This document shows, piece after piece, positions 7,202 through 62,008 of a stretch of DNA of 64,000 nucleotides (the stretch's first letter is position 1; every line of letters begins with the position of its first letter). The stretch is taken from assembly GCA_905178155.1 (NCBI GenBank), contig CAJINV010000005.1, forward strand, positions 4,837,394 through 4,901,393, in the 5' to 3' direction. The notes under the pieces were generated by a model. It did no database searches and was not told the DNA's origin. It saw only the letters and a list, made by a program, of their open reading frames with translations. The stretch is from Amoebophrya sp. A120 (taxonomy: Eukaryota; Protista; Dinoflagellata). The translations under genes were made by a program, and so were the position numbers.

Positions 7202-8842
7202 TTACTTCGACGTCATTTTGGTCAGCACCAAATGCCCCGGGCTTTTGTTCCTCGCAAACGGCGTCTGCGAACCGCCTATTGCGGACGGGGTGGACGTGTT
7301 GTTCGTTATTCGCAACTCCTGCGGCACCGCGTAGCTGCTGGTCTATGAACTGTAAAAGTATCGTACTCGTATATATAAATGCATGACAAATCTCCTCAGC
7401 ATGAGAAATAAAATTTGTCATGCAGATTTACCTTAAGGAAAAAATTTGTAATGCATCGCTGCGATTACTACGAGTACGATACTTTTGCACAGGATATGGT
7501 CGGTGAACCTGCAACGTCTACGTCCTTTGCTCCTGAAAGGTTAAACTCGAGGTCATCGAGGTTATGCATTGTAAAAGTGTCTGGGTCTGGAAGAGTCATG
7601 CTGTTTTTGCATGACACAGGAGGTCTGGCATGGAAGCTCTAGCATCACAGGTTTCGAGAACCTTCCGCAATGCCGAATCCGCATGACAAGTCGTCTCCTA
7701 TTTTGCTGACAAAAAGTAGGAGCTTTTGCTAAGTATGCATGAGGGACTTTTCTGTGTTCTGAAATACACATCACAAGTTGCATTCTTCCAGACCCAGACA
7801 TTTTTGCATTTGATAGAGGTATAAACCAGACAAATCCGTCTGGCCTCTGTCTCGTCCGGATAAATCTGACATCAACGACTTCTTCTCCCCGCTGCCCTGC
7901 GACTGCAGCATGTCGCTGGATTTCGACCGGGAGGCCATGCGCGCTATGGTAATGGACTGCTGCGATTGCAGCATCATATTTTCGCTATTGTTGTTCCCTT
8001 GCAGAATCGGGGCTGAGTCGCCCTCCGAATAATTCATAGTTCCTTTACTGCTCTCTCCTTCCGCCTGTTTCTTCTTCATCTTTTCGCTTTTTCTCCTGGC
8101 TCGTTCCTCCCGCAGCCTCATAATCTCCTCCGGGTCATCCTCTTGCAAACAGCAAAACACAATTCGCCTCCCTCGCCGTCTGAAATCTTTTTTCGTGCTA
8201 TCCAGATTCGACGCAGACCTTCTTAATTGCACCTTCACGATATGAGTGTGCACAACTCGCTCTCCCCCTCATTTGTAATGCAAAATACCGAATCCACATC
8301 CTGCTTTGAGGCTCTGCCTGCATGCCAAATTTTGGAATCTCAAACAGTACTACAATCGATCCGTGTTCAGATTTGTCATGCGGAAGCGGCATTTCTGCTG
8401 TTGTTTGTGTTGTTGTTCATGCCACACAAATGAGGGGGAGGGGGAGTTGCGCACTTTCATACACGAGTTCTACACCCGCGAAGGTGGTGGCGGTTTGCCC
8501 TGTGTTAGTTGGCGTCGCTGGTGATTGTGCGCCGCTGTCATTTTTCGTCCCATTCGCACTTATTGTTCCCGCTGTGGCGCCCGTTATTCCACCCGTTGTT
8601 GCCCCGCTGGCACTACCAGAACTCGTCGTTGCCCCGGAAGTGGTAAAGCCATTTACCTTATCGGTGGTGCTTCCGCCGGAACTGCTTTCTGCGTCAGGAA
8701 GATGAGGAACGGACTCGTCCTTGGAGAGAACCTTGTTTTCCAGGTTAATAGTCGGCTTTCGCGGCTTCGAGGGATTGTTAGCGTCCGAGCTTTTAGCATC
8801 CTGCTCGCGGGGGGACAGCTGCGCTCTGGTGATTTGGATCAT
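7202..8842 (-). CDS. Hypothetical low-complexity protein with 3 introners; 5' end uncertain
   Basis: In-frame joins ELV|KVQL, LYL|DDLEF and SPTS|SYAV after excision; stop TAA at 7202. The ATG at 8842 follows TTCTAG, so an upstream exon is possible. Confidence 0.6.
7344..7496. mobile_element. Introner family B (TIR tat....tgcaaaagtatcgtactcgta)
   Basis: TSD tggtc/tggtc. Confidence 0.9.
7563..7815. mobile_element. Introner family A
   Basis: TSD gaggt/gaggt. Confidence 0.9.
8241..8461. mobile_element. Introner family C (TIR tatga.agtgcacaactccc...ccccctcatttgt)
   Basis: TSD cacga/cacga. Confidence 0.9.
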
Positions 8843-9807
8843 CTAGAAGTACAACAGGAGGAAATGGAAAATGGGTTCAAAATGTAAATCAAATGCGAAT
8901 GAAGTCGTGGTTTACCGAAAATGAGTCCAAATTTACATCAAAACAGTCAAACTTGTATAAATTTTATCATCATGGTACAACAATCTGTATCAGCACCGGG
9001 GAGATAGTAGATGGTTCTTGTTTGTGAATGCACGCTATGCATTATTGGAGTGGGCGAAGAACCCTGTGGCGAAGATTTTTGTTGTAAAGATTTTGCTTAT
9101 TTTGCACGACACTGCATCTTCCAGGACATCTTCTGTGGCTTACTGATGGATAAAACTTCGGTCCACCGAGAAGTGCCTTTGTTGCTGGTGCTGTCCTGTG
9201 CGTTTGATTACCGAGTGCAGCAGGACGACTAGCCGAGGTAGTTGGAACCGTAGCAGGTGTGTAGTTTTATATACCGACGGGACGTTGCTAAATCAGTCGC
9301 GTCAGATTACAACTTGATGCTCAACCGATCTGATGCCAAAGCATTTGCCTCTTGCTCAAAACACCGACTAACATCTAACACGATCTAATAAACCGACAAT
9401 TATGAAGCCAGAAATTGTGCCAGAACACGTTCAAATCTGTTCTCTTCGCACATTCACAGTCGAGCTTTCATAGGAGCTTTTACGGTATTTCATTTCCTCC
9501 TCGAGTACAGCGTTACATAATCAAGACGGTCAAGAAACTCTTTGCAATTTTGATGACGAATTTGAAAGGTTTTTCAATCAATACGTAAAGACTTTTTTTA
9601 GGAAACGGCACTTACCAGGAAGAACTACTTATAGGGATGGATCTACAAAAGGGTATAAAATTCTTGAAACTGAAAATACGTAGCTCAAATGCAAGAACTG
9701 CATTTTTGAAATGTTACAAAATTCCATCGCGAAACAAGTCGTGCTGTTTGCCTCCGCGCCACAGCTTGTTCTGCAAGATGAAGACCTTCAGAAATAATCA
9801 ACGCTTC

Positions 9808-12800
9808 CTACTTCTTCTTCTTTCCCCCAGAACCTCCCCCTTTCGCCGCTTGCTCCTCCCGCCGTTGCCTCAGTTTCGCCTCTAATTTCGATTCCGTCGC
9901 TTTCAATTCCTTTTTCACGTGCTGCGTCACTTCCGTTGGCTTCCGGATGGTACGTTTTTTCGCGGCCCCGGCGAACGTGTCATCAAATGCGTTCATTTTC
10001 GGGATCATTTTGAATTTTTGCCTTTTCGTCAAGGGGGCCGGACGTTTCGGCGCGAGAACTTTGCGATCGTCGTAGTCATCCACTGCCACGATGGCGGTAT
10101 GAGGGTCGTAGTTTTCAACATCGTCTTCATTATCGCTCTCACGAGCAGCGTCTTCGTCTTCCACCTCGTGGTCCGCCCCGCCTTCAAATTCATTATCATC
10201 CGGGTTTTCATTTTCTTCTGAATCTTCGTCCCCACTAGATTCCTGATGATCATCCTCTGACTCAGAGTCAGACTCAGAATTTTCCTGTTCCTCCATTCCG
10301 TCCTCAAGCGCCGCATTTTCTTCTTGTTCGTCCAGCTTCCTCTTCACAACACTCACCCCACTCGCGTGATGCGTGACCTGCGTGGTCAACTGCGTGAACA
10401 GATTCCTCTTTTCCCTCCCGTGCCTCGATACCCGGAAATCGCCAATTCCGATCTGGTCGTGAATACTTTTCCCGATTTGCAAGTCCACCGTCCCGGTTTC
10501 TGGATTTTTCGCGTTTGCGGCACGGTAGTTGAAATCTTTCACCCGCGACCACTTCTTGTAACCGTCGTGAGCTGCGACGACCTGGTCGTTGGCGGGATTC
10601 ATTTTGTCGTTTGCGAGGACAAGATGTTGGTTTTTGGAGGAACTGGAAATTGCGGAACTGGAAGAGACACGACCTTTGCTCTGCTGCTTGGATGAGGAGG
10701 CGGAAGTACCACCACGGAGATTATGATTGCTCGACTTTTTTTCCATCACGTCAAGATCTTCCTCCGCACTATCCTCTTCTTCTGGCGGGAGCAGGTACTC
10801 CTTTTTCGCTTTCTTCCGCGGCGGGGAGGAGATTTTTTTCTCTTCTTTTGCATCAAATTCCAGAACTTCTTCCTCCTCTTTTATTGTTTCTAGATTCGGA
10901 TTGAAACTCGAGCTTTTGCTGGTTTGCTTCTGCAGGGAGGTCGTCGTGCTGAACAATTTGTTTTTAGCACTTTGCTCCTGCAACTCGATTCCTTTAATAT
11001 CTTCGTCGCTGTTTATTTCTCCGTCGATCTTCTCGTTAAAAAACTCGTCCAACTCCTCGCCAAACTGGATATTTTCATTATTTTCATTCTGACTCTGTTG
11101 CTCCTGTTCCCGGGCAAACTTTGTTTCGAAATCCTCCTCATCCTCTTGTTCGGCGAGATGATGAAACCCAGCACTATTATTCCCAAGAAAGCCGCTGTTG
11201 TCTTCGAAGCTCGCGAGGTCGTTGTCATAAATCTCATGATTCTCATCAACCTCCATCTCGTTCTCCTCGTCACTGTAGTTAAAGTTATCGTTATCCGCGT
11301 CGTCCTCTTTAGCATTATCTTCTACTTCCGAAAAAGCAGTACCACCATCTTCCTCCCCAGCATTCGCCTCCTTTTCCATCTGCCTCAAGGCGGCGAAAAG
11401 CGCGTTTTTCTTTTTCTTCTGCCCGCGCGTCACTATCGTCCCGTCCTTCTTTCGCCACACGCCCTTCCCGATCTTCCCCCGACCTTTAATCGGGCCTTTT
11501 TTCCCTTTTCCCTTCCCGGTGAACAGGAAGAGATTTCGCGCTTCCACCTTATCGGAGTTGCAGCTTTCCTTCGACGATTGGCGGCTGGAATTCGTTGTGT
11601 TCCGCGATTTCCGTCTCTATCCTATGTAAAAACGTCATCATCCCGTAGCTGTAATGCAAATGCGCAATGACAGGAGCATTTGTAATGCACATCTCCATGG
11701 GAGGCATTTATTCCAGTTGTGTTTTGGATTTTGTAATGCTGTAAACAGGATGAGAAAGTGGCTTTCTCATGCGGCTCCCCTTGCTAACAAGCACCACCCT
11801 GCAAATGGAAACTTGTCATGCACAACTCCCTAAGCCTGGAGATTTGTCTAGCAGACTTCCCATCTTGACTATGGGGTGGGGACGTTTTTCCTCACAATAG
11901 CCTCCCGGCGACCTTCAACGGGTCAAAATCGTGAATCCGCTGCAGCATGTATTCTGAATAAAAACATCCCCACCCCAGAGTTGTGTCATGCAAATCTGCA
12001 TGCCAAAAAAGTTTCTCATGCGAAGCCACATGAGAAGCGTTTTTTAGTTGTGTTTTGGGATAATTTGTGATGCTACAAGTAGCATGATAAGCTAGATCTG
12101 TGATGCTGACAAACTAATCTAAACAGGATTACACCACGAGGGCAAGAAACTTGTCATGCGAAACAACCAAAGTTGCCTGATTTGTCTAGCAGATTTTCCA
12201 TGCTGACTCTGGTATATGGGGACGTTTTTACTCAGGATAGCATGTAAACTTTCTCAATCGCCTTCTCCCTCGCGTCCGCAAGCTCGGTAACCGTGAACCC
12301 GCCGTGCTTTAGGTAGGCGTATTTAATCGAAATTTTGTCACTGAGTTCTCCCTTCGTGGTGGTCGTCGTGTGGTTATCATTATTTTCCGCCGCGGCTAGA
12401 CACTCCTTCTCGTAGTTCAACCGCTCACTATCCAATTCATTCTTCACCGGGTACACTTTTTCATCCAGGAAACAAACCCCAGAATCGATAAACCGCGCCC
12501 ACCAGTAGCCGGGGGATATGCATTGCAAATATGTCTGGGTCTGGTCATGCTTGCCTGGCATGACTGAAGAGTTTGTCATGCGTGTCCAAGAAGAGGCCCT
12601 TTTGCTTGTCATGCAAAAGTAGAACGCAGTTTGTTATGCGGAAAGCGCAACACCAAGCAGCGCAAATATTTCTCATGCTTCGCTGTGCATTACAGACAAC
12701 TCACTACTCACAACTCAGCATTACAAGTTTCCAGACACAGACATAGTTGCACTTGATATGGGACAGCGGTAAGCAAGTGCCCGCAGCCGTGGTCCGCACG

Positions 12801-15800
12801 GAGGTCTTCTTCGGATCCGACCAAATCCACCGCACGCCGTGTCCCTTGCCGGTGAGTTGCGGCTGGTAGGCAAAGGAAGCAGCGATTTCTTCCTCTTTCG
12901 CTTGTAGCTGTTTCGCGAATTCCGCTTTTTTCTCCTTCAATGCGAACACGTTCGCAATGCGCTGGTCCGCTTTCGTTTCGACGTGTGCTTCATTATTTTC
13001 GCTATCATTTTCTTTTTCCTCATCATCGCTGTTTTGAAAATCTTCCTGGTCATCTTCGCTGGCGTTGTGGTCTTGCTGACCATCGTCACTCCCCCCTTCA
13101 CCCCCCTCGTTCTTATACCTCCCTTCCCTCCACCGTTTCGTCCCGCCGACGTTCTTGCTGACAAACAGCTTCCCGTGCTTCATTTCATTCTGATTCGCCG
13201 GTTTTCTCTTTCGTTTTTTCTTCAATTTCTCCTGTTCTTCCAGCTCCTTTTCCCCTTTTAACTTCAACTCCTCCGCCTTCTTAATCTTCGCTTTTTCTTT
13301 ATCGGTGCAGTACACGTAGCAGAGGTGTTTCTTCTCCTGTTGAATTCTCCACTCAATTGCCTTCTGCTTCGTCCGCTCTACCTCCTCCTCAATCTTGTCC
13401 TGATCGTACTCCCAGTTGGAAATCTGCGGCACAAACAATTTCCGCAGGGTCTTCTTTTTCGAAACGGTCAATTGCGCGATCCAGCAGGGAGGACGGAACT
13501 GCTGCTGTTTTGCTTTTCGTTTTGTACTATTTTCGTTTTCGTTCATATCATTTTTGTCATCATCATCCTCAACATCGGAGTTATGATTCTCATCCTGCTC
13601 ACCGATGAAGACCTTGTTGTTCGGCCGTCCGTCGGCGAAGTCATCGTCCGAAAAATTCAGGGGGTTGTCGTCCAACACTAACTTTCCGTACGCCGCATTG
13701 TATTTCGTGCCCATCAAGCTGCCCTTGCTGTTGGAGCGGGAATTGTTCTTCAACGCGGAGAATGGGTTGGGATCTTCACTAGTACAACCATTGTGTAGTA
13801 GTTCTTGTTCCTTTTCCTTGTCCTTCTCTTTCTTCGCATTGTTCCCTCCATCCCCAAACCTATCAAATGCAAAAGTGTCTGGGTCTGGAATGTTGCCGGG
13901 TTTGTCATGCATATTTTCCATGGCCCAGGATGTCTGTAATGCACGGCCTAGCATCACACATTTTTAGAGGGCTTCCCGATGCCTATCCCGCATGACAAAT
14001 GCCCTCCCCGCTTAGCACAAACTGGGCTTCTATTGCTGGTCATGCAATACAGATTTTTTTAGAGTTCAAAGTTAGCATCACAAGTTCCAACCTTCCAGAC
14101 CCAGACATTTTTACATTTGATAAAACCACCCTTTCCGCCACGTCACGCCGGGGTAGCCAGATTGTCGAAACGTATGACAGTGCACAGCTCCGCCTCCCCC
14201 TCCTTTGTCATGCAAAATACACAAAATCCAGGGTGTGCCTCTTGGCACTGTTTGCATGACAAGAAGCTACTCCGGAAGAAGCCCAAACGCTACTACACTC
14301 CTGCGCAAATTTGTCATGCGAAACCCGCATTCTAGCTGGCGCTTCTATTGCCGCTGATGCTACATGAATGAGGGCAAGGGGAGTTGTGCGCTCTCATAAA
14401 ACGCCGGCACCTTGTATTTTCGTCTCCACATCGGGTACTGCCCGGTCTTCTTGTGCATGATTGCGATCGCCTTGATGTGCTCCGCGCGGAGGGTGATCAG
14501 CGATTTTTTGTACTCCAACGCGTCGTCTAACGCACGGGATTTCGCGCGTTCAAATTTCTCCTCTGCTGGGTCGTCTGGGTGGATGTAGGGGAGGATGGGG
14601 TAGTCTTGAACAACTTTGAGGAGTTCGCTTCTGTTCTGCTTTATTTCTGGCGCGCTTTCTGTGTCTGCTTGGAAGAGGTTTTTCTTTTTAGTCTTCGTTC
14701 CCTCGGGGAAATAATCGTCTTCGTCATCGGACAGAACTTTCTCGTCCATGAAACTATCCGTCGTCTCCTTATCCTTGAACGGATTACTCACCGCCTGGTG
14801 GTATGCATTGCAAAAGTCTCGCACTCGTGCTAATTGCGGGTATGCATGGCAAATCTAGCTCTCCAAGATAAACCAGGATGACAAACTCCATGTGGCATGC
14901 CCAGAAAATTTGTAATGCAGTTTGTACTTGAGTACGCTACTTTTGCAGTGGATAGGTGGTGACACACTCGCCAGTAGCTGTAATTGATGTTTTTCGGCTC
15001 ATATTTGAACTGGACTCCCCGGAGGCCGGAGAAATCCGTCGCGTTTTCCCCCGTGAAGTCCTTGATTTTCCGGATGCGCTTCTTCAGCAGCGGCTTTACT
15101 TTCTTAGATGTTCGTGCGTGGTGCCTGTTTCTTTCAGATTTATGCTGCTCATCCCATTCGTCATCTTGCTCTTCGTCGCCGTTTTGGTCTTCGTCAGATG
15201 CAGCGAAATCATCGCCATCTTCATGAAACTTGCGGCGTCGTCGATGTTTTTCCTTCTTCTTTCGTACAAAATCATCATACTCTTCCTCCGAATCATCCTC
15301 ACTCGAAGCCGGACCTTCTGATTGTTCCGAAGAACTACTACTGTTACTGCTGCTGCTGCTACCCATCAATTCTTTCAGCTCCGGTAAATTCTCGCCTAAC
15401 TTGTTTAAGCCCAGAATATCCTCCTTCTTTTTCTTACCCTGTTTATTTTTCCCTCCTGCTTGTTTATTGCTTCTGTTGTTCTTTCCCAAAACCACATCTG
15501 ACGGCAACGCGTGCAGCACTTCCTGCCCGTACGCAGTGGGGTCGAAGTTGATTTTGCCGAGAAAATTCACCTTCTCCATGTCTTCTCTTATCAAAACATT
15601 CCCACCGCTCGCAGAGATGAGAGCTCCTGTGTGGTTTATTTCGTCGTTGTTCTCCTCTTCGACAAGCAAGTCACGACCGTCTTTCAGATCGACGAGTTGG
15701 AACTGTTTTTCGTAGTCTCTTTCCAACTTCTTCAATAGTTGCTTCTTCTCCTTCGTGGAATAGGACTTGACTAGTAACTCCTGTTGGAGTTGGAAACTCA

Positions 15801-17463
15801 CCGCGTCTCTTTTAATTTTCTCATGCTCCCTCTTCCGCTTCTTCCGCTCCACAAGCTGCTCATCGAGTGGCTCATCGTCATCCCGCTTTTTCTTTTTCAC
15901 AGCGACTACTTTGTCACTTTTGCTCTTCATCAAATTATCCCCACCGGATGATGCCCGGGAATTCTTCGAACTGCAGCCGCTGTTCTTGGAGTGTACACGA
16001 CCTCTCTCGTCAAGATTAAAAAACGCGGGCGTGGCCGAAGGGTTGATGTCGATGACCGCGGGGGTGGCGGAGGGGTTGAAGTCAGCCGCTCTTTGGTGTG
16101 CATAAGGATCAACATCCTCGTACAACTTTGCACTTCTTTTTTTGCTCTTCTTCTTCCCAGCACCGCGCGCTGCGTTCTTGTTTCCTTTCGCGGTGCCAAG
16201 AGGCTGGTCGTACTGCAGGTGCGAAATGAAATTTTTCGTTATCCCGGTCACCGGGTCGCACGGCGTCATACCGGCGTAGTTTTCCTCATCCCGTTCTACT
16301 TCCGAATCTGGATCGTTCAACAAATCATACACTGTCGTCTCCCCACCATAATTGATGTGCCGGAAGTTTTTGTTATTTTTCGACCCCCTGTGGTTGTGGC
16401 TTTGACCAGCTGGTGCGCCGGCGCTGCTTTTGGAAACTGATCTGGAAGATTTGGAAAACATCCGGTTTAAGACCGTCTCGTTTTCTTCTAGCACTTTGCT
16501 CACTTGCTCTGGGTCGGAGGGGTCGATGGATGAACACTTGATGTTCCCTTTTGTTCCCTTATTCATCGCGGAGGAACAACCGGCTGCAGCTCGTGCACTA
16601 GCTGCTTTAGTATCAGCAACACTTCTGCGGGAAGAAGTTTTCTGCGCCTTTTTCTCCTTCTTGTCCGCATAGGTGTCAATTTCCGCGTATGCTGCGCAAA
16701 AGTATCGCACTCGTGTCGTAGTAATTGCAGTTATGCATTACAGATCTTTGCCTTAAGGCAAATCCGCATTACGAATTTCATTTCTCATGCTGAGAAAATT
16801 TGTAATGCATTTATACGAGTACTGCGATACTTTTGCAGTGCATACCGCGTCCAGGTCGGCGATTTCCTTTCCCAGCTTCGTGTTCAAAGCCAGCATGAAC
16901 GCCATGGGGTCGCTTTTATTCGTTTGCAGCAGGAGGTGTTGAAGAGAAGAAGAGGAAGAGGCAGGTGGCACGATTTCAGGCTGCTTGTCGTAGTTCTTCC
17001 CGGCTGTAATGATTTTCGATTTAGATGAAGAACCGTTGCTCTCCACAACATCCGCATTTATTTTCGGCTCTTCCTGCTTCTTCACCTTCCGTCGCTTTGG
17101 TTCTGGGGATGATCCTCGTGGGAGTTCATGATTTTCATCTGCCTCGTTGTCATCCACGTGATCCGGTTCGTGTTTTACAACTTGTTCCAGCTCCTTCTTC
17201 ACTTTAGAAGTCCCAGCAGCAGCTTTAGAAGTCGCAGCATTTGCTCTTTTGGGAGCTTGTTCAGGTTTGATCTTAATATTCCTCGTCGCGGTACTAGTAC
17301 CTGACGCTTCTTTTCGCTTCGTCCCAGTTCTGGAAGATGCTGGCTTAGAACTTGTCGTGGCCGCAGACTTTTGTTGGGTGGATTTGCCGTTTTTATGAGG
17401 CTTCGACGACGAAGACGCAGCGGTCGAGCCGGTCAGCCGGGTTTTGGAGGAAGTAGCAGGCAT
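9808..17463 (-). CDS. Large (about 2000 aa) acidic/basic low-complexity protein with two AP2-like (ApiAP2-type) domains, 7 introners
   Basis: Spliced reading gives SGYPGVTWRKG...CWIAQLTVSKKKTLRKLF...TKQKAIEWR and GHGVRW...YWWARF...DAREKAIEK. The junctions restore frame. Confidence 0.65.
11618..11899. mobile_element. Introner family D (TIR tatcctgagtaaaaacgt.cccac.ccagagt)
   Basis: TSD gtctc/gcctc. Confidence 0.85.
11950..12239. mobile_element. Introner family D
   Basis: TSD gcatg/gcatg. Confidence 0.9.
12517..12758. mobile_element. Introner family A
   Basis: TSD gggga/tggga. Confidence 0.85.
13861..14122. mobile_element. Introner family A
   Basis: TSD aaacc/aaacc; close internal match to 3932-4193. 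Confidence 0.9.
14173..14398. mobile_element. Introner family C
   Basis: TSD aaacg/aaacg. Confidence 0.9.
14802..14954. mobile_element. Introner family B
   Basis: TSD ggtgg/ggtgg. Confidence 0.9.
16688..16844. mobile_element. Introner family B
   Basis: TSD ccgcg/ccgcg. Confidence 0.9.
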
Positions 17464-17793
17464 TTTGATGCTCGTCGTGATAGATTCACATGCAGCTACG
17501 GCTTTAGTTCCTAGAAGTTGGCGGTGCTTAGTAGTAGTGCGTCCTTCTTTTTATTTCTCGCTGCGCTAGAATTGCTGGAAGATGGAAATCAGAAACATGA
17601 CATAAGCACAACTCCGTGTCGTCTCCTCGCTCGACGCCAGCTATTGACGAGAATCGAGACAGATGTGAAGACCCTCGCTCTGAGCGACCCTGCGCTTGCC
17701 TCTCAATCCGCACTCAAGATTTCCATTTCCGCTCCGAATTCCGGCGCATGAACACGAACGAAGAACGAATAGATAGTACAAGGTGGCGACGAT

Positions 17794-18963: not shown

Positions 18964-19717
18964 GAAAGGGGACCAGTCTCGTCATCGTTGGCTACAATGA
19001 ACGAACGCTATGTAAATGACAAAGCCGGGTGCAAGGCGAACACGTGAAAAAATCAACTTCACCACATTCTTACTTCCGCGGCAAAAACACCACTGCTCTT
19101 GCTCTCTTTTATTTCCCAGCTCAAAGTGGTCAAGTCGTTGTTCAATTGTCGAATTATTCAAGGTTTGTAATGCGGAATATTCATTACAGTGTCGCGTCAA
19201 ACTTATGTACAATGTGTCGCTTGATAATCATGTCGAGTTCATCTCAAGAACTTCGCGGTCCGATCCGAAGCCCTTCTGGCAGCGCCTTCGAGCAGCCTGA
19301 TCCTGTGCAAGAACTTTTTCATTGAAAAATTCTCCATCGTTCTTCTTTGATGTAAAACAAAGTGCTTTTTCCGTTGATAAACTTTTGCGATTCAGAGCCC
19401 TTCTACTTCCGTAGCACAGCGCCTCTCGTCCTGTCGGAAGCAATTGTTGTAGGTTGTTAAACTTTTGATAAACTTTTGCGATTGATACTTTCTACCGGCC
19501 GTAATCATGCCTCACGCCCTCGCAGCAAACCGACTAACAGGAGAAACCCGTTGCGGACATGCTCGCAAAGAACGTCGACGCCTGTAGAAGTTCTAGCTGC
19601 TGTTAAACTTTTGCGATTGATAAACTGTTGACACGAATTCGAGTGTAAGTACGGGTAGAGTTTCCAATTCTTCTCTTCCAGTGGTTCCACCTCCGGCACT
19701 GAAGATTTGCTCCATTT

Positions 19718-34412: not shown

Positions 34413-34461
34413 CCCGCCGCGCAGCTCCTCCTGCTGGTTCCGCCATCACAAATTCGCCAGA

Positions 34462-50200: not shown

Positions 50201-53200
50201 CCTAAAAATGGATATTTGTCATGCATGATAGCAATTACTACGAGTACGATACTTTTGCACAGGATATTCTTTGAACTGCAGCAAAAGCTCTTCCGGGGTG
50301 GAATACTCGGTGGCGACACTGCTTTGCTGCATCTTTTCCTGCTGCGGTAAGAACCCAGAAGGACTGGCGGGTGTAAAAGAAGTTCCGCTCACCCTGCTGC
50401 TCCTTGCGCTGCCTTTCGCCGCGGCATGCTGTTGACCCCCTATGTGTGCAGCCGAGGTCGGCGGTGACCAAGCGGTTATCGACGCGACGCTCTTGCTATC
50501 CGATTTCGCAGACTGTGGCGGGCTGGAGAAGTAGTAGTAATTGTTGCGTGTTTTGTTCTGCTCTTCATTCAATTTCTCTGGCGGACTACTGGACGCTGCG
50601 CTGGCGAACCCGGCGATGTTATCAAAAGGAAAAACTCCCCCTCCCCATATTAAAACGGAAATCTGTGATGCAGATTTGTTGTCACAAATCAGCTTTGTCA
50701 TGCTACACGGGAAAAGATGCGGACTGTAGTGCTGGGTGGCGTGGGGAAGCCTTGCATCTTCAGCATGATAGGAGGCAGCTGAAAGTGGGAAACAGCATGA
50801 CAAATTGCCTGCAAACGAGGCCACGACTGCGGCTCTTGGCCTTCTAGCATGACAAATCGATTTGTGACCTCAAATACAGCATCACAAATTTCGTTTTCGA
50901 TATGGGGAGGGGGGATTTTTCCTTTCGATAGATGTCGTAATTCTCCTGGTCGTCGAGAAAGTTTTGGTTTTTGTTCAGAGGTATGAACTGCAAATATGTC
51001 TGGCTCTGGGAGATTCCGAGCCTTGTCATGCAGATTTTCCATGATCCATGTCGTCTGGAATTCAGCACCTAGCACGACAGATTCTCTGAGATCCCTACCA
51101 TGCCTATCCTGCATGAGAAACTCCCTGTCAACTTGATCGAAAGTGGACGTCTTTTGGCACTCATGCAACACAGAATCTTGCATGCTTCAGACTTAGCATG
51201 ACAAGTTGCAACCTTCCAGATCCAGACCCAGACATATTTGCAATCCATAAGAGACTGAAGCACCGTGGTCAAAGGTGACCGGGGCCGCTTGTTCGTGTTG
51301 TTATAGCCTTTGTTCAGCATTTCATGTCGTGGACTGCTGTTAAAACTGCTGTTAATTGCCGCGGTGCTCGCAGTATGCATTGCAAATGTGTCTGGGTCTG
51401 GAAGATTGCTATAGCAGACTTGTGACGGCGCAGGTCTTGCATGACCCATACCGTCTGGCAAACAGGACCTAGCATGACAGATTCTGTTTTTACATCTCTA
51501 TCATACCTCTCCTGCATGACAAACTGCCTCTCAACTTGGGCAAAAATACACACCGTTTGGCAATCATGCAACACAGATTCTTGCACCATTCTAGACTTAC
51601 CATGACAAGTTGCAGTGTTCAGGACCTTCTAGACATATTTGCACTTGATACGCATAGGCAGCTTGCTTCACTTTCCCAGAAGAAAACACTTCTTCCAGCT
51701 CCTGCATTCGTCTTCTCGCTTGTTCGATTTTCTTCACTTGCTCCTCTTTGGACAAAAGCTTGCTCGCGAAATCATTTTTAGCGGTCTTCTTGTTGCTTTT
51801 CCCAAATTTCAAATTGTTGTTACTCCTGCCCTTCTTGTTCGCATTCAGCACTTCCTGCAGCGCCTCCTGGGCTATTAAGAGGAAACATCCCCCCTCCCCA
51901 TATCGAAAAGGTATGCTTGCGAAAATTTGTGTTGCTGATTTGAGACCACTAATCACGTCTGTCTTGCAAGAAGGCAACTCCACAAGCTCCGCAGCATTGT
52001 GCAGGCGGTTTGTGATGCTCATGGGCCTACATCACGGACTTTTCTCATGCTAGACCCCTAGGCCAAAACCTCTCTACTTAGGCTTAGTATGGGCCTGCAT
52101 TCCTCTCCAGCAACACAAATCTGACTTGTGTACGCAAATCCTGCATCAGAAACTTCGTTTGGATATGGGGAGAGGGGATTTTTCCTTCTGATATGCGCTT
52201 TCTTCGCTTCGAGCCTCAGTTTTTCCAATTCCATTTCCCGTTTTTCGTTTTCAATCTTCTCCCGTTCCTCCACCAACTGCGCAAGCATGGTTTCCTCTTT
52301 CGCCTCTTCACAGATCAGCTCGCCCTATCAACTGCAAATATGTCTGGGTCATCTGGAAGATTTCTCATGCAAGTCTGGTATGACTCTGAGCTCTGTATTG
52401 CGTAGCCGCAAAGACGAGCTCCTCCTTTATGTCTTGCAAAAACGTAGTTTCTCATGCGGAGTACGCAACTCAGAACCACGGAAAAACTTGTCATGCTGTG
52501 CAACGCATTACAGTGTGCTCACTATTTTCCCCGTGCTTGCATCACAAGTTTCCAGACATCCACGGGAGATATTTGCATTTGATACGCCCTCGGTCGTGTT
52601 CAGCAGCAAGTCGTCATTGTCGTATTCGTCGGGCTCTTTTCTGTCAAAGCTGAAGGGTTATCCTGAGTAAAAACGTACCCACACCAGAGTCAGGATGGGG
52701 AATCTGCTAGACAAATCAGCCAGCTTTGGTTGTTTGGCATGACAAGTTTGTCCGCGTAGTGTAGTGCTGTTTGAGCTAGTTTAGCAGCATTACAGATCTA
52801 GTATCTCGTGCTGATTGGAGCATGACAAATTTCAAAACCACACTAGAAAATGCTTCTCATGGGGCTCCGCATGAGAAACATTTTAAGCATGCAGAGTTGC
52901 ATGACAACTATGGTGTGGGTACGTATTTACTCAGGATAAGGGCTTCGGCTTAGTCACCGGGGCGGGTTGGATGTTTGGGTTGTCGGTGTTGGGCGGGACA
53001 AGATTTGGATGCAGCTTGTCCCGTATTCTCGTCGCCATGTTGTTTCGGCGGGCAGTGGAGCTGTTGTTATTCGAGCTGGATTGTAGTTTGCCAGCAGTCT
53101 GTCTTGCGGGTGCTGCTGGGGCAATTTTTCCACCACCAATATTCGCCATGTCCTCCCTCCGGATGATTTCCGTTCGCGTTTCCTGCTTCAGATGCGCGGG

Positions 53201-56200
53201 CTTGGTTGTGGACATCACGACATTGGTACTGTTTGATGTAGTTCCGACACCACCAACATTACCGCCGCCGCGTGGAGTTGTACGTGAGTTCGAATTTGTA
53301 TTGGCACTACCAACTCCATGCGACGAGGACGATTTCAGCACCGTTTTGTTGTAATTCCGCTGCACGATTTCCGGATCATTTTGCACCGAATGTTGGAAGT
53401 TCGTCTCTGCGAAATTCGGTAAATCAACCCCGGTTGTAACAGCTCTACTCTGATGTCCGCCTCCTCGTTGTTCCCGTCTTGACGTCGAAGACGAGCTCCC
53501 GCCGATTTGTTCTTTCTGCGCGCCCAAAATTTTTTCCCTGTTCAATTCATACCGCATCCGCCGGTCTTCTACGCGTTCTAGGAGGTCGGGTGAGGTGGAG
53601 GTAGTCCCCGCGGCCGACGTGGAGGTTTTCGTGCGTTTTTTCATTGCACCACTAGCACCCTGCGTCGCTGTTCCAGAGCCGGAACCTACACCGCCGTTCT
53701 TATTCCCAGCGCTAGAAGCGGAGGACGATGATGTCCAGGTTAAACATTCCTTCGTGTATGAACTGCAAAAGTATCGTACTAGTTCTAGTATAAATTGCAT
53801 TACAAATTCACTTAGCATTACAAATCAAATTTGTAATGCGGATTTGCATAAATGCAATTAGTACGAGTACGATACTTTTGCACAGGATATCGTGTTTAAC
53901 TTCCCGATTTCCGATTTCAAATTCTGGTAAAACGTCAGCCTCTCCGGATTTGCGGAAGCGGTTGCGGTGGAAGCACTTTTGTCACTTGTCATGCCAACGC
54001 CAGCTGTGAAGTTCGTTGGGTCTTTATCGCATCTATCCTGTGCAAAAGTGGTACAGCACTCGTAGTATTGCAATACGAATTCGCTCAACACGACATAAGA
54101 AACTTGTCGTGCTGGTTTGCAAAATTGCGAATACTACGAGTACGATATTTTTGCACATGATAGCGTCCGCCGCTCGCCGTGCTTTCATACGACATCACGC
54201 TGGCTTTCGAGGATTTTGCGGAGTAAAAACTGAAAACATTCTGACCTGCAGCAGTTCCTGTTCCTTCGTCCCGCTGACCCCGCTCCTCGTCCTTCGTCTC
54301 CGCGTGGTCGGTGTCGAACAGATTCGTGGTGTTGAGATTGTTGTTGCGATAATTCTCATCTCCGTGACGATCCTGTTCCCTCGTCGTTGATTCCTTCGAA
54401 CTTGGAAAAAGTCTGGACGCGAGGGACTCGAATACCGTGTTCTCTAGGAACGGCTTTTTCGAGTCAGAAGCGGATGCTGTTGTTGTGTCTAGTCCACCTT
54501 TATTCATTCCTGCGTGTTGTGACGAATTCTGATTTTTCTCCCTTTGCTTGTCGCTCACCTCCTTCCGAAACTGGCTGCTCCCATCGGCCATCTGCTTCTG
54601 AACGATTTTTTGGGATTCTTTACTCAAACCGGATTTTGGTGCGGGGATCAGGGACGGCTTGTTCGCAGACGCAGCGCTGTGCCCTCTCCCATGCGATCCG
54701 TGCGAAGATCCCGGTCTTGACGAAGAGGACGCATATTTGCCTTGCTTTATTCCGGACGACGGTCGTGAGCTTGCGGATGCACCTGAATTCACTTGTTTTT
54801 CGCTGACACAGCATATGGAATAATTCGTGCTGCACTTACTATGCAGAAAAACCTCCCCAATGATAGATTGTGACTTCGACGCCAAAATTTAGATTTTCCC
54901 ACTTCCGAAACCCTAATGCAAAAATCCTTCCTACCTCGCCCATGTCTGCTGCCCTGCAGGTGCTCCCCACCGGTTCTGCCAGCACTACTCACAGCTGCGT
55001 CGAGGGTCGCCAAATTTTTCGGCTCGGAATTGGCTCCACCTCCATTCTATGAAATGCAAAAGCAGCGTACTAGTAGAAATCGCATTACAAATTTTCTCAC
55101 CAATAGAAATGGAATTTGTAATGCGGAATTACCTTGATAAAAAAATTTGTAATGCATGAATGCAATCACTACGAGTACGATACTTTTGCACAGCATACAT
55201 TCGCCCCCGCGATCTTCGACATGAGATGCCCGAGCTCCTCCTTCGAATTGGCGACTTGCTCGGCGAGTTCCCGTTTGGAATTTTCTAATTCCACCTTCAC
55301 CTCCTCGTGCACTATGGAAGCGTCAGGTTTGAAATCGTCAAAGTTGAAATAATTTGTAATGCATAAAATGCGTGACCTGAGGCACGTGTGTTGCAGAGCA
55401 GGCAAGTGAGGCCGATTGTAAGCCTGTTTGGGGTTACATCTCGAGCTGCTAAAGTAGCATAAGAAAATCGCTCTTCTTTGCCTAAACAGCATGACAAAGT
55501 GGATTTAGGGACCACCGAAATTTGTCTTGCGCCGCTTACAAATTGGGTCACAATCTTTCATCCATTTTATGCATGACAAATTATTTCAACTTTGGCGATT
55601 TCAAACCTGACGCTTCCATATGCACTTGGCTGTTATTAAACGCGTTCATGATCAGCTCCTGGCGGTGAAAGTGACCTTTCTGCGGATCGTTCGCACCAGG
55701 ACCCAAGCTTGTCAAATCAGTTTCTACTGCGCCATTATACCCCGCTGGTGCTGATGTCAACATCTGCGAATTACAACTATACGGGTTGTAGTTTGATGGA
55801 CCACCAGAGGATGCAGCTCCTGCTCGTCCGCTCGCAGTACTATTCTTATTCGAATTACTGATCACCGCCCCCGCGGTGTATTGCATGGCCTGGGCAACTT
55901 GCTGCAGCGTCTCCGTCAATCTCCGCTGTTGCTCGTTCTGCAAGCTGATTTGCCCCTCCAGCAACCGCGCTTGCCGCTCCAGGTAGAGTCTTTGCCACAT
56001 GCCTTCGAACACCTGAGGCTTATGGATCTGTCAGATTCGAAATCGACAAAGTTGAAATAATTTCTGATGCATAAATTGCAAGGCATGAAGTGCCTCTCTT
56101 GCAGGGATGGCAAGCGAAACCGACTGTAGGCCTGTTTGGGGTCTGCGATAGAGCTGCTAAAGTAGCATGACAAAAGACGCCCTCTGTCCCTCAACAGCAT

Positions 56201-56682
56201 GACAGACTCGATTTAGACAGTGCCGAAATTTGTCATGCGCCGCTTGGAAATTGGGTTTCCAACTGGTATCGATTTCATGCATTACAAGTTCTTTCAACTT
56301 TGTCGATTTCGATCCTGACACATCCATAAGGGTTTTCCTTTGCGTACTGCTGCGCGTCGGAGGCGAAGGAACCTGCATTTTTGTATGCTGAGTACATGTT
56401 GTTCTACTCCCAAAGAACGCATGCGAAATGAGGTTTGCAATGTGAGATCATATCGCATGACAAAAAGCGCCCAGTAAGAAGATCTTCCCATTTATCTTCT
56501 ATACCTTCCACATCTTCGTCGAAAAGGACCCGGGTCGTGTTATTTTTCAATTCGTCCTCGGGCGTTTTCGATACCATCACATCGTCGTCGTCCTTCGTGA
56601 CGATCAAGGGGTCGCCCGCCTCGATGATCGGCACCTGCTCCGTGTCGAGCTCAATCATGGATTCTTTACTGATCTTCAACAT
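47285..56682 (-). CDS. Large low-complexity coiled-coil hypothetical protein with 14 introners and several other introns; could be more than one gene
   Basis: Series of same-strand open segments separated by introners; ends LSEGEVLLSDGEM*. Not all junctions were resolved. Confidence 0.5.
47321..47572. mobile_element. Introner family A
   Basis: TSD ccctc/ccctc; right half near-identical to 13861-14122. Confidence 0.9.
48860..49180. mobile_element. Introner family F
   Basis: TSD tgccc/tgccc. Confidence 0.9.
50117..50266. mobile_element. Introner family B
   Basis: TSD ttctt/ttctt. Confidence 0.9.
50620..50930. mobile_element. Introner family F
   Basis: TSD gatgt/gatgt. Confidence 0.9.
50982..51249. 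mobile_element. Introner family A
   Basis: TSD agagg/agaga. Confidence 0.85.
51374..51650. mobile_element. Introner family A
   Basis: TSD cgcag/cgcat. Confidence 0.85.
51873..52193. mobile_element. Introner family F
   Basis: TSD tgggc/tgcgc. Confidence 0.85.
52326..52584. mobile_element. Introner family A
   Basis: TSD cgccc/cgccc. Confidence 0.9.
52659..52938. mobile_element. Introner family D
   Basis: TSD agggt/agggc. Confidence 0.9.
53757..53889. mobile_element. Introner family B, short
   Basis: TSD tcgtg/tcgtg. Confidence 0.9.
54034..54162. mobile_element. Introner family B, short
   Basis: TSD gcatc/gcgtc. Confidence 0.85.
55048..55197. mobile_element. Introner family B
   Basis: TSD cattc/cattc. 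Confidence 0.9.
55313..55620. mobile_element. Introner family I (TIR tatggaagcgtcaggtttgaaatcg.caaagttgaaata)
   Basis: About 40-bp near-perfect TIR; TSD tgcac/tgcac. Confidence 0.95.
56021..56328. mobile_element. Introner family I
   Basis: TSD aggct/agggt. Confidence 0.85.
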
Positions 56683-57233: not shown

Positions 57234-60200
57234 TCACCTTTTCGGCTGCTGTGGACTACTACTACTGCTATTTTTCGTGCTTCTATTGGAGGTTGCACTA
57301 GGTTTCTGGTACGGCCCCGCACTGGCAGCACTCGAACTACTTACTCCCGCAGCGGAGGTGCCCGCTGAGTTCCTGTTCTCAATGCACCCATCGAGCGATA
57401 TCGCTTCCAGGATCCTTACCCTTGTGTCCTGCTGGTACGCAACAGCCGCGGTGTTCGTACTGAAATCCGGGGCAACCATCGTGTCCTGCATGGTTACATC
57501 GGCCGGAGGCTCATCGTTCTCGTTCAGATTTATCTCGTCCACCCGATTTGCCTTCTCCGCAGATGACGTCGTCGGAGAGGACGAACTCACAACAGACCGC
57601 TTCCCGTCGTCGCTGCCGAGCGCGAAGGAAGACAAAGTGGACAGCTGCGCGATGGAATTCTTATCCTCGTCTTCCGCGACAAGCGAAACCGAATCCGCGT
57701 TGGAGTTCGTTCTCGGCGGCTGACTCAGAGTGGTGACGGAGGAGGAGGAACTCGGAGAAGTTCTCGCGTTATTTGTACTGCTAATACCTTTAGTACCTGG
57801 GGAAGAACGACTCGGGCTTCCTCTCGGGTTCGAAGAGGTGGAAGCTTGTGCAGCAGCAGCGGTTCCGGGGACTACCAGCAATTCCGCAACGGATTCCGCG
57901 CCGGGCGGGGGCTGGTACCGCGGGACGTGTTCGGAGGTGGAGCATGTTGAACCTTCCGGGTTATCTGATGTCAGTCTCAAATCACCACTACTGCTACCAT
58001 TGCTCTCGTCCCGGTCCGCCCCTCGGGTCACCTTGCAGTGAATAAAAACCACCCCGAACAGGCCGATCACGCACAAAACCGTGAAAAACAATTGGCTCAT
58101 GAAGTAATTGTTTCCCGTCGCGTCCACCAAGTGTCCGTACACGATATTTCCGAAAAACAGCCACAGGGACTGCTGCATGTAGCACCCCCCCACGTGCAAA
58201 ACTTCCAAATCCTTGTTTTTGCACACGTGGGGCACCAGGGTCCAGAGCGGCACGACGCAGCAGCCGAAACCAATGCCGAGAATCACGCAGCAGACCCACG
58301 GCGGAATTTGGAGAAGCGCGTTGTGGATGGAGGAGGTCGTGAGGGTTGAGTTTGTTTGGAAGGAACTCAACATTGTTGTCCCAAAAAAGCTGCTGCTGGT
58401 ACTGCCACTGCTGTTTTCAACATTATCCTCGAAGAAGTTGTTATTTGTCCAGGAGACGTCGGCGCTATTGTACTGAAACGCAGCAGAATCGTTGTACTCT
58501 GTGTCGTAGGCCTTCAAAGTGATCAGGCCCTGACCGATGAAGAGCAGCACGAACGCGAAGCAAGCAAACCGGATCAAGCGTTGAAAAGTGTGGAGCAGCG
58601 GGGCCAGGAAGAGGGAGACAACGGAGATTCCGGGAATCAGCGCGATCGCGGAACCGGCGACGCTGTTTGGTTTTTCGTTTGGTGTTTTTGCATGACAGAT
58701 TCTACTTTCGTGCTTGCTTTCTTGCATGACAAACTAGTTTTGGACAACTGACAACCAAAATAGTAGATTTTACCTCTCCGACACCCCCGCGACCCTTTGC
58801 AACGTCAGACAGCCGTTGTACTCGAAAACGAACACCACTGTGTATAGCAGCCCGATTAGCGCTTGGTGGATGAAACACAAGGCGGTCAAATCTTTCAGCC
58901 CCGGCTTGCCATTCCCGTCACTGCCATACTTCCCGCCGCCCCCGCTCGCGGCTAGCAGCGGCCGGATCTTTCGGGAAATCTCCGTCCCGCTATACAGGTA
59001 CGCGAAGGACAGGTAGCAGCACCCGGACACGCAGACGAAGACGAAGGAAAATTTCATATCCTGAGTAAAAATGTCCCCACACCAGAGTCAAACTGGGAAA
59101 TCCGCTAGACAAATCAACCAGCTTTGGTTGTTTCGCATGACAAATTTGTCCTCGTAGTGTAGTCCTGTTCTAGGTAGGTCAGCAGCATCACAGATCTAGC
59201 ATGTAATGCTGATTGTAGCATCATAACTTCCGAAACACGACTAGAAAATGCTTCACATGGGGCTCCGCATGAGAAACTTTTTTGGTATGCAGATTTGCAT
59301 GACAAATCTGGGGTGGGGGCATTTTTCCTCGCGATATTTCAGCGCCTTCAAAAACGCCGGGTTGTTGGTGTGTATGTCCGCATCTGGGTCGGCGAAGTAC
59401 TGCTTCAAAGGGTCGGCCAAGATGTAGCCCATGGTCCCGCCGATCCGGCACGCCGCCAACACTCCCGCCTGCGCGATCGCGGCGTACTTTTTGCTGAAGA
59501 GCAGAAACACGACCACCACCTGCACCACCCCGGTGGTGCAAATCCCCGCCCAGAACAGGACCCGGCCGAGGATGGAGAGGAAGTACACCTCATACTGGAT
59601 GGCGGCGATTAGTAGGAAGGACCCGAGACAGACCATGGACCCGAAGAGGAGACAGGATTTCGAAATGCCCCAGTTCCGCACGAGAAACCCCGCCGGGCCG
59701 GAGAGCACCGCGGAAAGCGAGCCCGTGGCGAGATATCAAAATGAAAAATCCCCCCTCCCCATATCAAAACGGAAATTTGTGATGCTGATTTTTTTTTTTT
59801 TTATGGCGGCAGTTTGTTTTGGCTACTAAACTTGCGATGAATCTCATTCCTAGTTTTCATTTTGACCTTAATGCTGCCGCGGTGCTCACGTCGACCGATA
59901 TGCAAACAGGTGCCGAGGCCTGTTTGCATGCGATCTAGTGAAGGTATATTGGGCGTTCCCGTCTGCCTTACCACGTCGCCCGGGCTTGCAGGGTTGGGAT
60001 TTTCCTGCCGGATGTTCAACGACATCTACGTGGCTAGTCATGATCCCTCTCCCTGTTGCGACCTGCTTTTTTGTTTGGTTGAAAAAATCCAAAAAATGCA
60101 AGGTTGAAAAAAAAACAAAGGCCGCGGTCTGTATTTGTTGAAAGATAGGAGGGAAACCCACCACGTAAGCAGGAGAAAATTTGGGCACGAGAGAAACAGA

Positions 60201-62008
60201 GCATGTACTAGGGCTGGGATTATGAAGCGGAGGCCATTAGACTACGAGGGCAAATATGTAATGGGCCAGACGATGAGAAAAGCGACAAACTTACTTAGGG
60301 GCTCACTAGCTAGCAAGGGCGCGAGGGGCTATCAATCGCAAGTAAAGCGGCCTAGGGAGAAAATGCTTAAGACTCGACAAAAGCCAAAGGAATCATCAAC
60401 GATGCGAAAAAAGCGAAAAAACAACAGAGAATCAGAGGCGCAGGCTAGAGGAAGAAAAAACGCTTAACGGTCTCTCAGGAACAAGAGGAAAATCGTAGCC
60501 AAAAAACCAGAAGAGATTCTTTCAGTTAAGGGGAAAAAAAAAAGAGGATAGGACGCGAGTTGTCATGCAAATTTGCTGCAATGACAAGAACATCTGCGAT
60601 GCGCATCCCCCGGATAGGCATTTGCAATCGTGTTTGGGGATTTGTGCTGCTGTAAACACGATCAGGACATGAATTTGTAATGCGGCTGGTGTTAATTTGT
60701 AGTTCTATCCGTGGATGAAACAACATACAAACCTGAAAGACATCACAACAATTTAGATGCTGATTGTGTGGTCACAAATCATCTTTGTCTTGTATATAGG
60801 ATCATAGGAGCCATTTGACGCATTCCAGAGCAAGTCTGTCATGCGCTTTCGACTACTGCAAGCCTGTTTGTCATGCGCAATTGCTAGCCTTCTGCATACC
60901 CAAACAAGCTGAGAAAATGCCGCCAAGCACTTTCTGCAAGACAGATCTGATTTGTGTACGCAAATCCAGCATGAGAAACTTCGTTTCGATATGGGGAGGG
61001 GGGATTTTTCCTCTCAATACGAGGATGAGGGAGTACTTGGTGTTGTTGATGTTCATCGCGAGCTGCAAATCCTCCTTGTATGGGGGTGTCAGGATTGAAA
61101 TCGACAAATTTGAAATGATTTGTCATGCATAAAATCGATACCAGTTGGAAGCACAATTTCGAAGCGGTGCATGAGAAATTTCGGCACCGTCTAAATCCAG
61201 TTTGTCATGCTGTTTAGGCACAGAAGGCGTCTTTTGTCATGCTACTTTAGCAGCTCTATCGCAGACCCCAAACAGGCTTACGATCCGCCTCACTTGCCAT
61301 CCCGGCAAGACAGGCACTTCATGCCTTGCATTTTATTCATCGCAAACTCTTTCAACTTTGACGATTTCAAACCTGACACATCCATACCTTGTACGCACCA
61401 AATAAGCTGTCGAAGAAATACGGGCCGGGAATGAAGCAACAAACCAGCACGTGGACGATCAGCAAGTGGCAGGTTCTCCTCGGATCCACCAGGTACTTCA
61501 TCCACCGGTCTAAACAGGTCCTACCGGGTCGCGACGAGGAGCTCGACGGGCTGGTGCTGGAGGAGTTCTGCTCTTCATGATTGCCCCGCGACCCCTGCTG
61601 GTCGTAGTTGTTGTCCGCTCCTCCTGCTCCTCTTGTTCCGATATTAAGGAGGTTGCTGGAAGAGGAATTCCTTGAACTGGCCGGCGAATTGTCTCTACTA
61701 CTCGTTGCTGCGAAAGTATCGAACGCGTGGCCCGCATTTTCGTTCGTGCCGTCGAGGGCGGGCAAGGCGATGGAGAGCACGGGTTCGGACCCCGCGGTCC
61801 GGATCCACTCTTGCTTGGTCTTTTGCACGTAGAGTTCCGGATTATTACTTACTCGGCTGGGCGGTCGCTGCTGCTGTTGTTGTGAGGCAGCATGGTCAGA
61901 TGGATTCAGCAGCGGGCGGTCGCGCCGATTGTTCCCGGCGGACGGCGAGGACGGCCTGCGCGGGCCCTGCTGTCTGCGCTGGTTCTGGCTCGGTTGCGAA
62001 GAACGCAT
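57234..62008 (-). CDS. MFS transporter, MFSD1-like
   Basis: Multiple hydrophobic helices; HVLVCCFIPGPYFFDS, SGPAGFLVRNWG, ILGRVLFWAG, IVYGHLVDATG. Joins YK|EDL, LIL|ATG and ALK|FSF are in frame. Confidence 0.8.
59057..59336. mobile_element. Introner family D
   Basis: TSD tttca/tttca. Confidence 0.9.
59734..61019. mobile_element. Introner family F expanded by an internal insertion of about 965 bp
   Basis: Family F TIRs 1286 bp apart; TSD cgaga/cgagg. Confidence 0.85.
59791..60755 (-). mobile_element. Retroposed insertion (poly-A tail plus 10-bp TSD) nested in an introner
   Basis: gatgctgatt duplicated at 59781-59790 and 60756-60765; T-run at 59789-59802. Confidence 0.75.
61079..61386. mobile_element. 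Introner family I, inverted relative to the 55313 and 56021 copies
   Basis: TSD ccttg/ccttg. Confidence 0.9.

Follow-up and report, generated by a model that had tools for sequence, protein, structure and literature searches.

Introners were reported from the dinoflagellate Amoebophrya sp. A120 as elements whose ends consist of TAT, seven variable bases and a run of A; short direct repeats mark their borders with the exons, their junctions are non-canonical, and they lie in co-oriented genes (PMC7789003). The same text reports no transposase in A120, no U1 small nuclear RNA (snRNA) and no common splice signature; at issue are the movement and splicing of Amoebophrya's tens of thousands of non-canonical introns. 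Here, elements agreeing in all of these structural features were analyzed in a 64,000-nucleotide (nt) stretch of A120 DNA (hereafter the window; assembly GCA_905178155.1, contig CAJINV010000005.1, positions 4,837,394 to 4,901,393 of the forward strand), with attention to an 8-nt motif, TGT(A/C/G)ATGC, shared by the interiors of their families. Family lengths of 148–149, 106, 209, 252–261, 278, 305, and 319 bp match A120 rows in the supplement of PMC12130899, of which 41 of 58 entered the comparison. Introners are known, and the shared motif is a real, selected, and previously unremarked feature of a known element class. PMC7789003 describes terminal and direct repeats only; the passages and supplement text searched, figures aside, mention neither an internal motif common to the families nor a rule of spacing or a test of orientation. 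Nor was an earlier report found in the literature on introners, on Amoebophrya non-canonical introns, or among the matches listed for TGTCATGC in connection with introns, all on other subjects by their titles, a search in which figures and theses lay outside the scope; the excerpted review PMC11282704 and the text of the Farhat supplement do not mention such a motif.

A close structural precedent is the Emigrant/Lemi1 miniature inverted-repeat transposable element (MITE), likewise a short, non-autonomous element with terminal inverted repeats (TIRs) and with internal motifs near its ends, in both orientations and in a defined arrangement; Lemi1 proteins bind these subterminal repeats, and the precedent extends to CACTA, hAT, and Sleeping Beauty (PMC1636448, in the portion covered). 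According to the same portion, the Emigrant motif copies the TIR's 3′ half, and the TIR is the main determinant. In the A120 elements, by contrast, the motif is common to families with differing TIRs and fills the whole 110–330 bp interior; moreover, these elements are introns, and they are known here from sequence rather than from binding. Like MITEs, they have terminal repeats, a target duplication and no coding capacity, and their internal motifs recur at set distances from the ends and are conserved in the lineages that propagate.

With respect to possible mobilizing enzymes, the 5-bp target duplication of the A120 elements fits that of Ginger2 (4 or 5 bp), and their TA..TA termini fit those of IS3EU/GingerRoot, whose 6-bp duplication does not fit (PMC10045372, in part). 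A120 family 38, about 810 bp long and listed as Ginger in the supplement of PMC12130899, is alike in its 5-bp duplication and TA/TA termini. It contains integrase-like open reading frames (ORFs), unlike the elements studied here, which have no transposase inside, and its authors state that the expected Ginger termini are absent.

Elements and their removal from transcripts

A scan of the window for TAT...ATA ends with a 5-bp target duplication gave 54 raw calls, of which five were discarded as false or misplaced (23203, 23603, 35621, 57822, and 61717), and three elements were added by hand. The resulting set comprises 51 clean elements, with a decayed element (34202), a 1286-bp element (59734), and an old outer element (44955) kept apart. 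A metagenome scan with the terminal repeat of one family returned at least 157 further stretches, of which 151 (484 kb, non-redundant) were used; these contain 1477 motif copies, counted like all strict copies on both strands, and 313 further elements, and 40 reversed segments gave no false calls. That these loci belong to the same strain as the window is an assumption, and because they were picked by the F0/F2 pattern, the abundance of families F0 and F2 and the conservation of their terminal repeats are inflated. Clustering of the 361 elements of at most 400 bp placed 338 in 12 families of 4–116 members, repeated across the genome, and left 23 unassigned. In run X5, read depth reached about 79,000 over element bins, compared with 25–34 elsewhere. 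No Rfam family reached the gathering score in the window, and the terminal-repeat pattern had no match in viral contigs.

The ends follow the described pattern. TAT was found at 99% of the ends of the 364 elements, a value inflated by a detection step that required TAT-like ends, and A occupies end positions 11–13 in 88–93%, with families F6, F7, and F8 deviating from AAA. The target duplication is perfect in 308 of the 364 elements (37 of 51 in the window) and shows no base preference. No coding capacity was found in these TIR elements. Removing each element together with 5 nt joins the flanking frames into minus-strand reading frames as long as 2031 codons. RNA-like contigs (runs X1–X4, one sample; their RNA nature is a guess, none of the listed source runs being recorded as RNA) show the same rule: at no fewer than nine simple elements, the joints leave out precisely the element and 5 nt, and length arithmetic gives the same result for 14 elements in 13856–29374 (in X1) and for the elements between 50112 and 54162. 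Removal thus occurs at non-canonical junctions; the same contigs also skip GT-AG introns. The raw-read RNA runs X9 and X10 placed only 7 and 20 reads on the window.

An informative case is the interval 44951–45401, in which an old element, its target duplication decayed and an F2 element nested inside it, was removed as one 451-nt intron. In transcript sense, the cut lies 1–2 nt before TAT and 3–4 nt after ATA; this one joint suggests a junction rule of the form N|TAT...ATA-NNNN, where the donor is GT and the acceptor is other than AG. The first register, N-TAT, matches the GTAT start frequent in the GT-AG introns of this genome. Furthermore, the two ends of an element are more alike at positions 16–30 than are swapped ends (z 1.7–5.3 in eight families), a difference inflated by detection thresholds and subfamily structure; this likeness weakly favors a pairing role for the terminal repeat.

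A shared internal motif with a conserved layout

The motif is strongly enriched in the window, as the sequence-only reading of this stretch had proposed: 178 copies were counted versus 6.8 expected under a second-order Markov model, and its three variants rank first, fourth, and sixth in abundance among all 8-mers, with the T variant TGTTATGC occurring four times. Of these copies, 161 lie within the 14.2 kb of elements (3.4 expected) and 10 within the 1.4 kb of GT-AG introns (0.22 expected), compared with 5 copies in 17 kb of intergenic DNA (1.46 expected; one of them, at 31286, lies inside a predicted intron) and 2 copies in 31.4 kb of exons (1.95 expected). The motif is therefore rare in exons, as that reading held, but at background level and without depletion; a second count gave 14 exonic copies versus 9.9 expected. 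The clusters it singled out are present, at 25068 and 25077 (both minus), at 53797 and 53815 (minus) with 53832 (plus), and at 55082 (minus) with 55117 and 55148 (plus). Its claim of several copies in every element holds for most of the 51, two having none and three having one. The 8-nt core stands as well, although the site proved longer, with family consensuses giving roughly RAA-YY-TGT-V-ATGC-W and tolerating the variants TCTCATGC, TGTGTTGC, and TGTATTGC. The apicomplexan ApiAP2-type octamer TGCATGCA was rejected as a signal, with three occurrences in the window and none in elements. A locally duplicated repetitive stretch at 36900–37830 also carries the motif (at 37144, 37188, and 37275), with no clear terminal repeats.

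Copies are arranged at preferred distances. Same-strand pairs 31–33 bp apart number 21 versus 2.7 by chance and occur in 11 of 12 families; head-to-head sites are enriched at 15–16 bp (8 vs. 1.1) and 45–49 bp (9 vs. 2.3), and tail-to-tail sites at 16–17 bp (5 vs. 1.1). Together, these spacings amount to a lattice of roughly 16/32 bp. Of the 24 consensus ends, 19 have an inward-facing first site, which lies 33–34 bp from the end in 6 and 41–45 bp in 9; this offset of 10 bp would fit helical registers with respect to the cut end. Head-to-head dyads with arms of about 13 bp and a spacer of 7–8 bp are seen in consensuses F0, F2, F5, F6, and F9. Such dyads recall the core sites of tyrosine recombinases, for example loxP; because the target duplications are 5 bp long, however, a DDE enzyme is favored over a tyrosine recombinase.

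Motif columns are conserved beyond their surroundings, diverging from consensus by 5.5%, compared with 21% for the other interior positions and 9–11% for terminal repeats (family-weighted, 12 families). Since the motif does not diverge as fast as its neighbors, differing about fourfold, and since the families do not all align end to end as a single lineage, the proposed binding site for a common trans-acting factor gains support. A tree test in eight families gave a motif change rate relative to background of 0.14 on internal and 0.35 on terminal branches, and of 0.21 and 0.50 for TIR positions 16–30, although parsimony and sparse sampling weaken its power to separate transposition from host selection. 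Mismatches in the target duplication were tried as an age clock and rejected: motif divergence was 5.4% (287 elements) versus 6.2% (51), and the background did not rise.

The families had been called otherwise unrelated, which is partly correct. Each of the 12 family consensuses contains the heptamer GCATGAC, while any given 6-mer of the first 30 nt occurs in five at most. With a null that keeps motif blocks fixed, 53 of 66 family pairs show no significant interior alignment at p 0.05, but four pairs are related beyond the motif, namely F5–F9 (z 16), F6–F8 (6.5), F0–F2 (6.2), and F4–F7 (4.6), two of which differ in their terminal repeats. The aligned interiors together with the slow motif columns indicate that the layout is partly inherited and the motif retained above background.

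Copies in GT-AG introns were examined in a set of 75, made up of 65 predicted introns of the extra loci with GTA donors and 11 window introns (3 from RNA joints, 2 from contig breaks, and 6 from gene models or sequence), with one holding a nested element dropped. Eighteen contain 27 copies versus 1.7 expected, and 57 contain none; among the locus introns, 11 of 65 carry the motif, and none of four with other donors does. Carriers look like old introners, given that 14 of 18 begin with GTAT (22 of 57 non-carriers), that 5 of 10 within-intron pairs are 32–36 bp apart, and that 4 of 18 align to an element family at p<0.05. Their terminal-repeat similarity is 13.4/25, compared with 12.7 in non-carriers. 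Pairwise comparison of the motif-bearing introns revealed short similar patches only and no separate family. A is present at the third upstream base in 10 of the 27 copies versus 754/1085 in the comparison set; the core thus stays while the AAA flank decays.

Candidate readers of the motif

Our preferred reading, held with a little better than even confidence, is that the motif is a double-stranded DNA site for one protein mobilizing all families, present as orientation-blind pairs 31–33 bp apart inside both ends of non-autonomous, spliced TIR elements. We infer binding, the identity of the protein, and the role in transposition from the patterns described above. A multimeric protein would bind the phased sites and bridge both ends for cutting and strand transfer, a step modeled on transposases acting at MITE subterminal repeats. 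TAT plus the motif would be the likely protein-read code, both being common to families whose 30-bp terminal repeats differ, and the family-specific terminal repeat would act mainly by self-pairing, joining the splice junctions in RNA. The 5-bp duplication and the TA..TA ends point to an integrase-type DDE transposase (Ginger or IS3EU/GingerRoot-like) as the most likely protein, or a host cofactor recruited by it. Copies losing the motif would stay spliced and stop spreading; indeed, the elements at 24551 and 54034, with no strict copy, are still skipped in the contigs, so the motif is dispensable for splicing. A motif common to families with different terminal repeats could serve as bait for the mobilizing protein and as a tag for the autonomous element, and shows that intron-generating elements can diversify their ends yet keep an internal code.

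Several observations weigh against this DNA-site reading. Neither the window nor the 151 loci yielded a transposase or a long coding element, in line with Farhat et al. Spacings of 10–11, 20–22, and 41–43 bp are not enriched, which leaves simple helical phasing between sites unsupported. The subterminal motif of known MITEs is usually similar to their terminal repeat (PMC1636448, in part), a likeness shown here by some families only. Even among the closest pairs, the rate on terminal branches remains about 0.35, as host selection would also predict. In addition, 8 of the 18 motif-bearing GT-AG introns hold two or more copies without a terminal repeat. Under uniform neutral decay, retaining pairs needs a divergence below about 15%, at which terminal-repeat similarity would be about 22/25, and at 30% divergence a simulation expects at most 10% of introns with pairs (p about 2e-4 for 8 of 18); this simulation is uniform and ignores end deletions, and the introns are few and mostly predicted. 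Uniform neutral decay thus cannot give both lost repeats and kept pairs, which is the chief finding against transposition as the sole explanation and leaves room for a host role. Finally, the sense form predominates in these introns (14:4 by intron, p=0.03). Strand-asymmetric mutation, tried as the cause of this lean, left no trace in young elements (0.040 for A>G, 0.043 for T>C).

The main rival, which may also hold alongside the DNA-site reading, is that the motif pair serves as an intron mark independent of strand, read by a DNA-binding or chromatin protein of the host and aiding co-transcriptional splicing; introners bearing it would be tolerated within exons, and it would outlive the decay of the terminal repeats. 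We consider this unlikely, though well ahead of any RNA-level role. It would account for the 32–36-bp pairs persisting in GT-AG introns beyond neutral decay, for the decay of the AAA flank around an intact core, for the terminal-branch rate, and for pairs 31–33 bp apart, in both orientations, in unassigned non-coding DNA of the loci that lacks recognizable terminal repeats (36 copies vs. 9 expected). However, most GT-AG introns are motif-free, motif-free introns and elements are spliced, exons are not depleted of the motif, and the carriers look like relics, in a set made up mostly of gene-model predictions and judged by a simulation blind to end deletions. If host selection does explain the survival of the motif in GT-AG introns, a transposon signal would have been turned into an intron signal. 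A combined version, which we hold more tentatively still, has a single protein, either host-encoded or a domesticated integrase, reading the 32-bp-phased pair on double-stranded DNA, mobilizing introners and marking them for orientation-independent splicing; the mark kept in GT-AG introns would then be a DNA-level intron code of transposon origin.

A strand-specific splice signal and a motif-built RNA fold are excluded as the main role of the motif, and either is very improbable in any form. The sequence-only reading had offered the motif as a replacement for the branch point and polypyrimidine tract, an idea to which the undetected U1 snRNA (PMC7789003), the likeness of GCAUBACA to a U-n-A-C branch pattern, and the presence of this form 20–60 nt from the 3′ end in 173 of 255 oriented elements lend some appeal (orientation followed from the gene strand, called in the window and in 55 of 75 locus segments). 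The mirrored count at the 5′ end reaches the same level, however (183/255), and 82 of 255 elements lack the form, including the contig-skipped 52659, 50117, and 45698. Strands are balanced, at 386 versus 366 copies, with no family biased (F3 10:11). Sites are intact about equally often when the pre-mRNA reads UGUVAUGC (331/497) and GCAUBACA (317/481), the Mantel-Haenszel odds ratio of 1.11 not being significant. Five families with asymmetric layouts prefer no supplying orientation (33 vs. 49), the presumptive branch A belongs to the less conserved positions of the motif (0.90, compared with 0.98 for G), and the bias in GT-AG introns, 57 of 75 of which are motif-free, favors the opposite form; the idea is largely refuted. 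The other RNA proposal, in which opposite copies pair into a multi-branched fold aiding splicing, agrees with interiors folding more stably than their shuffled versions (mean z of −2.75, and of −7.75 for whole elements) and with 48 of 154 copies pairing with another copy in the minimum-energy fold, but fails on covariation: of 3185 pairings of the variable base, 1104 are Watson-Crick pairs versus 1101 expected, and this base is complementary in 16 of 40 strict dyads. Moreover, 88 of the 255 elements carry strict copies in one orientation only (41 and 47 for the two forms). Least probable of all is that ancestry alone, from one repetitive ancestor of all families with a functionless motif, explains the sharing. 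The four related family pairs speak for it, and it accounts for the layout but not for retention: the fourfold excess conservation of motif columns and the internal-branch rate of 0.14 contradict it, as do the 53 family pairs without significant alignment.

Elements, introns, and genes along the window

The elements had been placed within 7344..61386, which holds except for one further element before this range, an F0 introner at 3932–4193 with 5 strict copies (copy numbers in parentheses below). It is followed by introners of F1 at 7344–7496 (3), F0 at 7563–7815 (3), F6 at 8241–8461 (2), F3 at 11618–11899 (4, with the pre-mRNA reading GCAUBACA in all) and 11950–12239 (4), and F2 at 12517–12758 (4). 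The 14 introners skipped by length arithmetic in an RNA-like contig belong to F0 at 13861–14122 (5), 27303–27565 (3), and 28361–28623 (5); F1 at 14802–14954 (1), 27637–27787 (3), and 29225–29374 (2); F6 at 14173–14398 (3) and 25438–25661 (2); F2 at 24870–25124 (6); F4 at 26163–26466 (1); and F3 at 25746–26030 (3, pre-mRNA GCAUBACA only) and 28675–28953 (5 strict, pre-mRNA GCAUBACA in all). Two of them are of unassigned family, at 24551–24711 (0 strict copies, six one-mismatch sites) and 26651–26823 (2). Between them lie F1 at 16688–16844 (2) and 23188–23340 (3; target duplication decayed), F0 at 19842–20097 (3) and 20936–21214 (2), F5 at 20653–20859 (3), F2 at 21269–21521 (6) and 21771–22032 (2), and F4 at 22382–22702 (2).

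Further along, a decayed element with F5-like ends, recognized by sequence, occupies 34202–34365 (2), and F3 and F2 introners lie at 39365–39643 (2) and 42146–42388 (4; ends decayed). The nine simple elements with contig joints are F0 at 44633–44895 (3; the joint skips 268 = 263+5), 47321–47572 (2; 257), 50982–51249 (2; 273), and 51374–51650 (2; 282); F1 at 45698–45846 (3; 154) and 50117–50266 (3; 155); and F4 at 45960–46290 (2; 336), 48860–49180 (3; 326), and 50620–50930 (5; 316). The old outer element removed by the 451-nt joint spans 44955–45400, with a decayed target duplication, and its nested F2 introner 45122–45365 (6). Length arithmetic also shows skipping of F4 at 51873–52193 (1), F2 at 52326–52584 (3), F3 at 52659–52938 (4 strict, pre-mRNA UGUVAUGC in all, in the orientation opposite to 28675), and F1 at 53757–53889 (3) and 54034–54162 (0 strict copies, a single one-mismatch site). 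The remaining introners are F1 at 55048–55197 (3), F7 at 55313–55620 (3; end without AAA), 56021–56328 (4), and 61079–61386 (3), and F3 at 59057–59336 (4). The 1286-bp element at 59734–61019 (5) has F4-type ends and, as its longest frame, a lysine/arginine-rich one of 118 codons that matches nothing in Pfam; the element may derive from a longer one by deletion or may contain a nested one. The F4, short spacer, and F0 at 50612–51249 align with positions 1755–2414 of locus L041 (666 nt, 78%), an arrangement that may reflect chance adjacency or a composite unit.

All 11 GT-AG introns of the window lie on the minus strand. The four said to carry the motif do so, each being 1 nt longer than first given. 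At 20168–20373 (ORF reconstruction, without terminal repeat), copies occupy intron positions 44 and 162; the probable intron 22129–22269 (141 nt, in frame, stop-free) has 2 reverse copies 36 apart; 22741–22894 (ORF reconstruction) has 1 reverse copy; and 58663–58773, without terminal repeat, has copies at 43 and 77, a contig piece ending at 58662. One copy each was found at 21556–21699 (ORF reconstruction), in the gene-model intron 56388–56504 (at position 43), and, in reverse, in 31264–31372, predicted from a gene model alone with uncertain boundaries. Contig joints define 45441–45573, with a strict copy at 77 and a one-mismatch copy at 44, and 48020–48143 and 49452–49582, both spliced with no strict motif. 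The gene-model intron 54783–54934 is motif-free, and a contig piece ends at 54780.

Minus-strand genes of the window include those for a CPSF73-like endonuclease (4194–6179) and a microbial-type PARG domain protein (34462–35472). The gene at 19718–23409 has an IWS1/Spn1-like appearance, suggested by a weak Spn1/IWS1-like match of 22040–22375 in a structure search (E 0.98).

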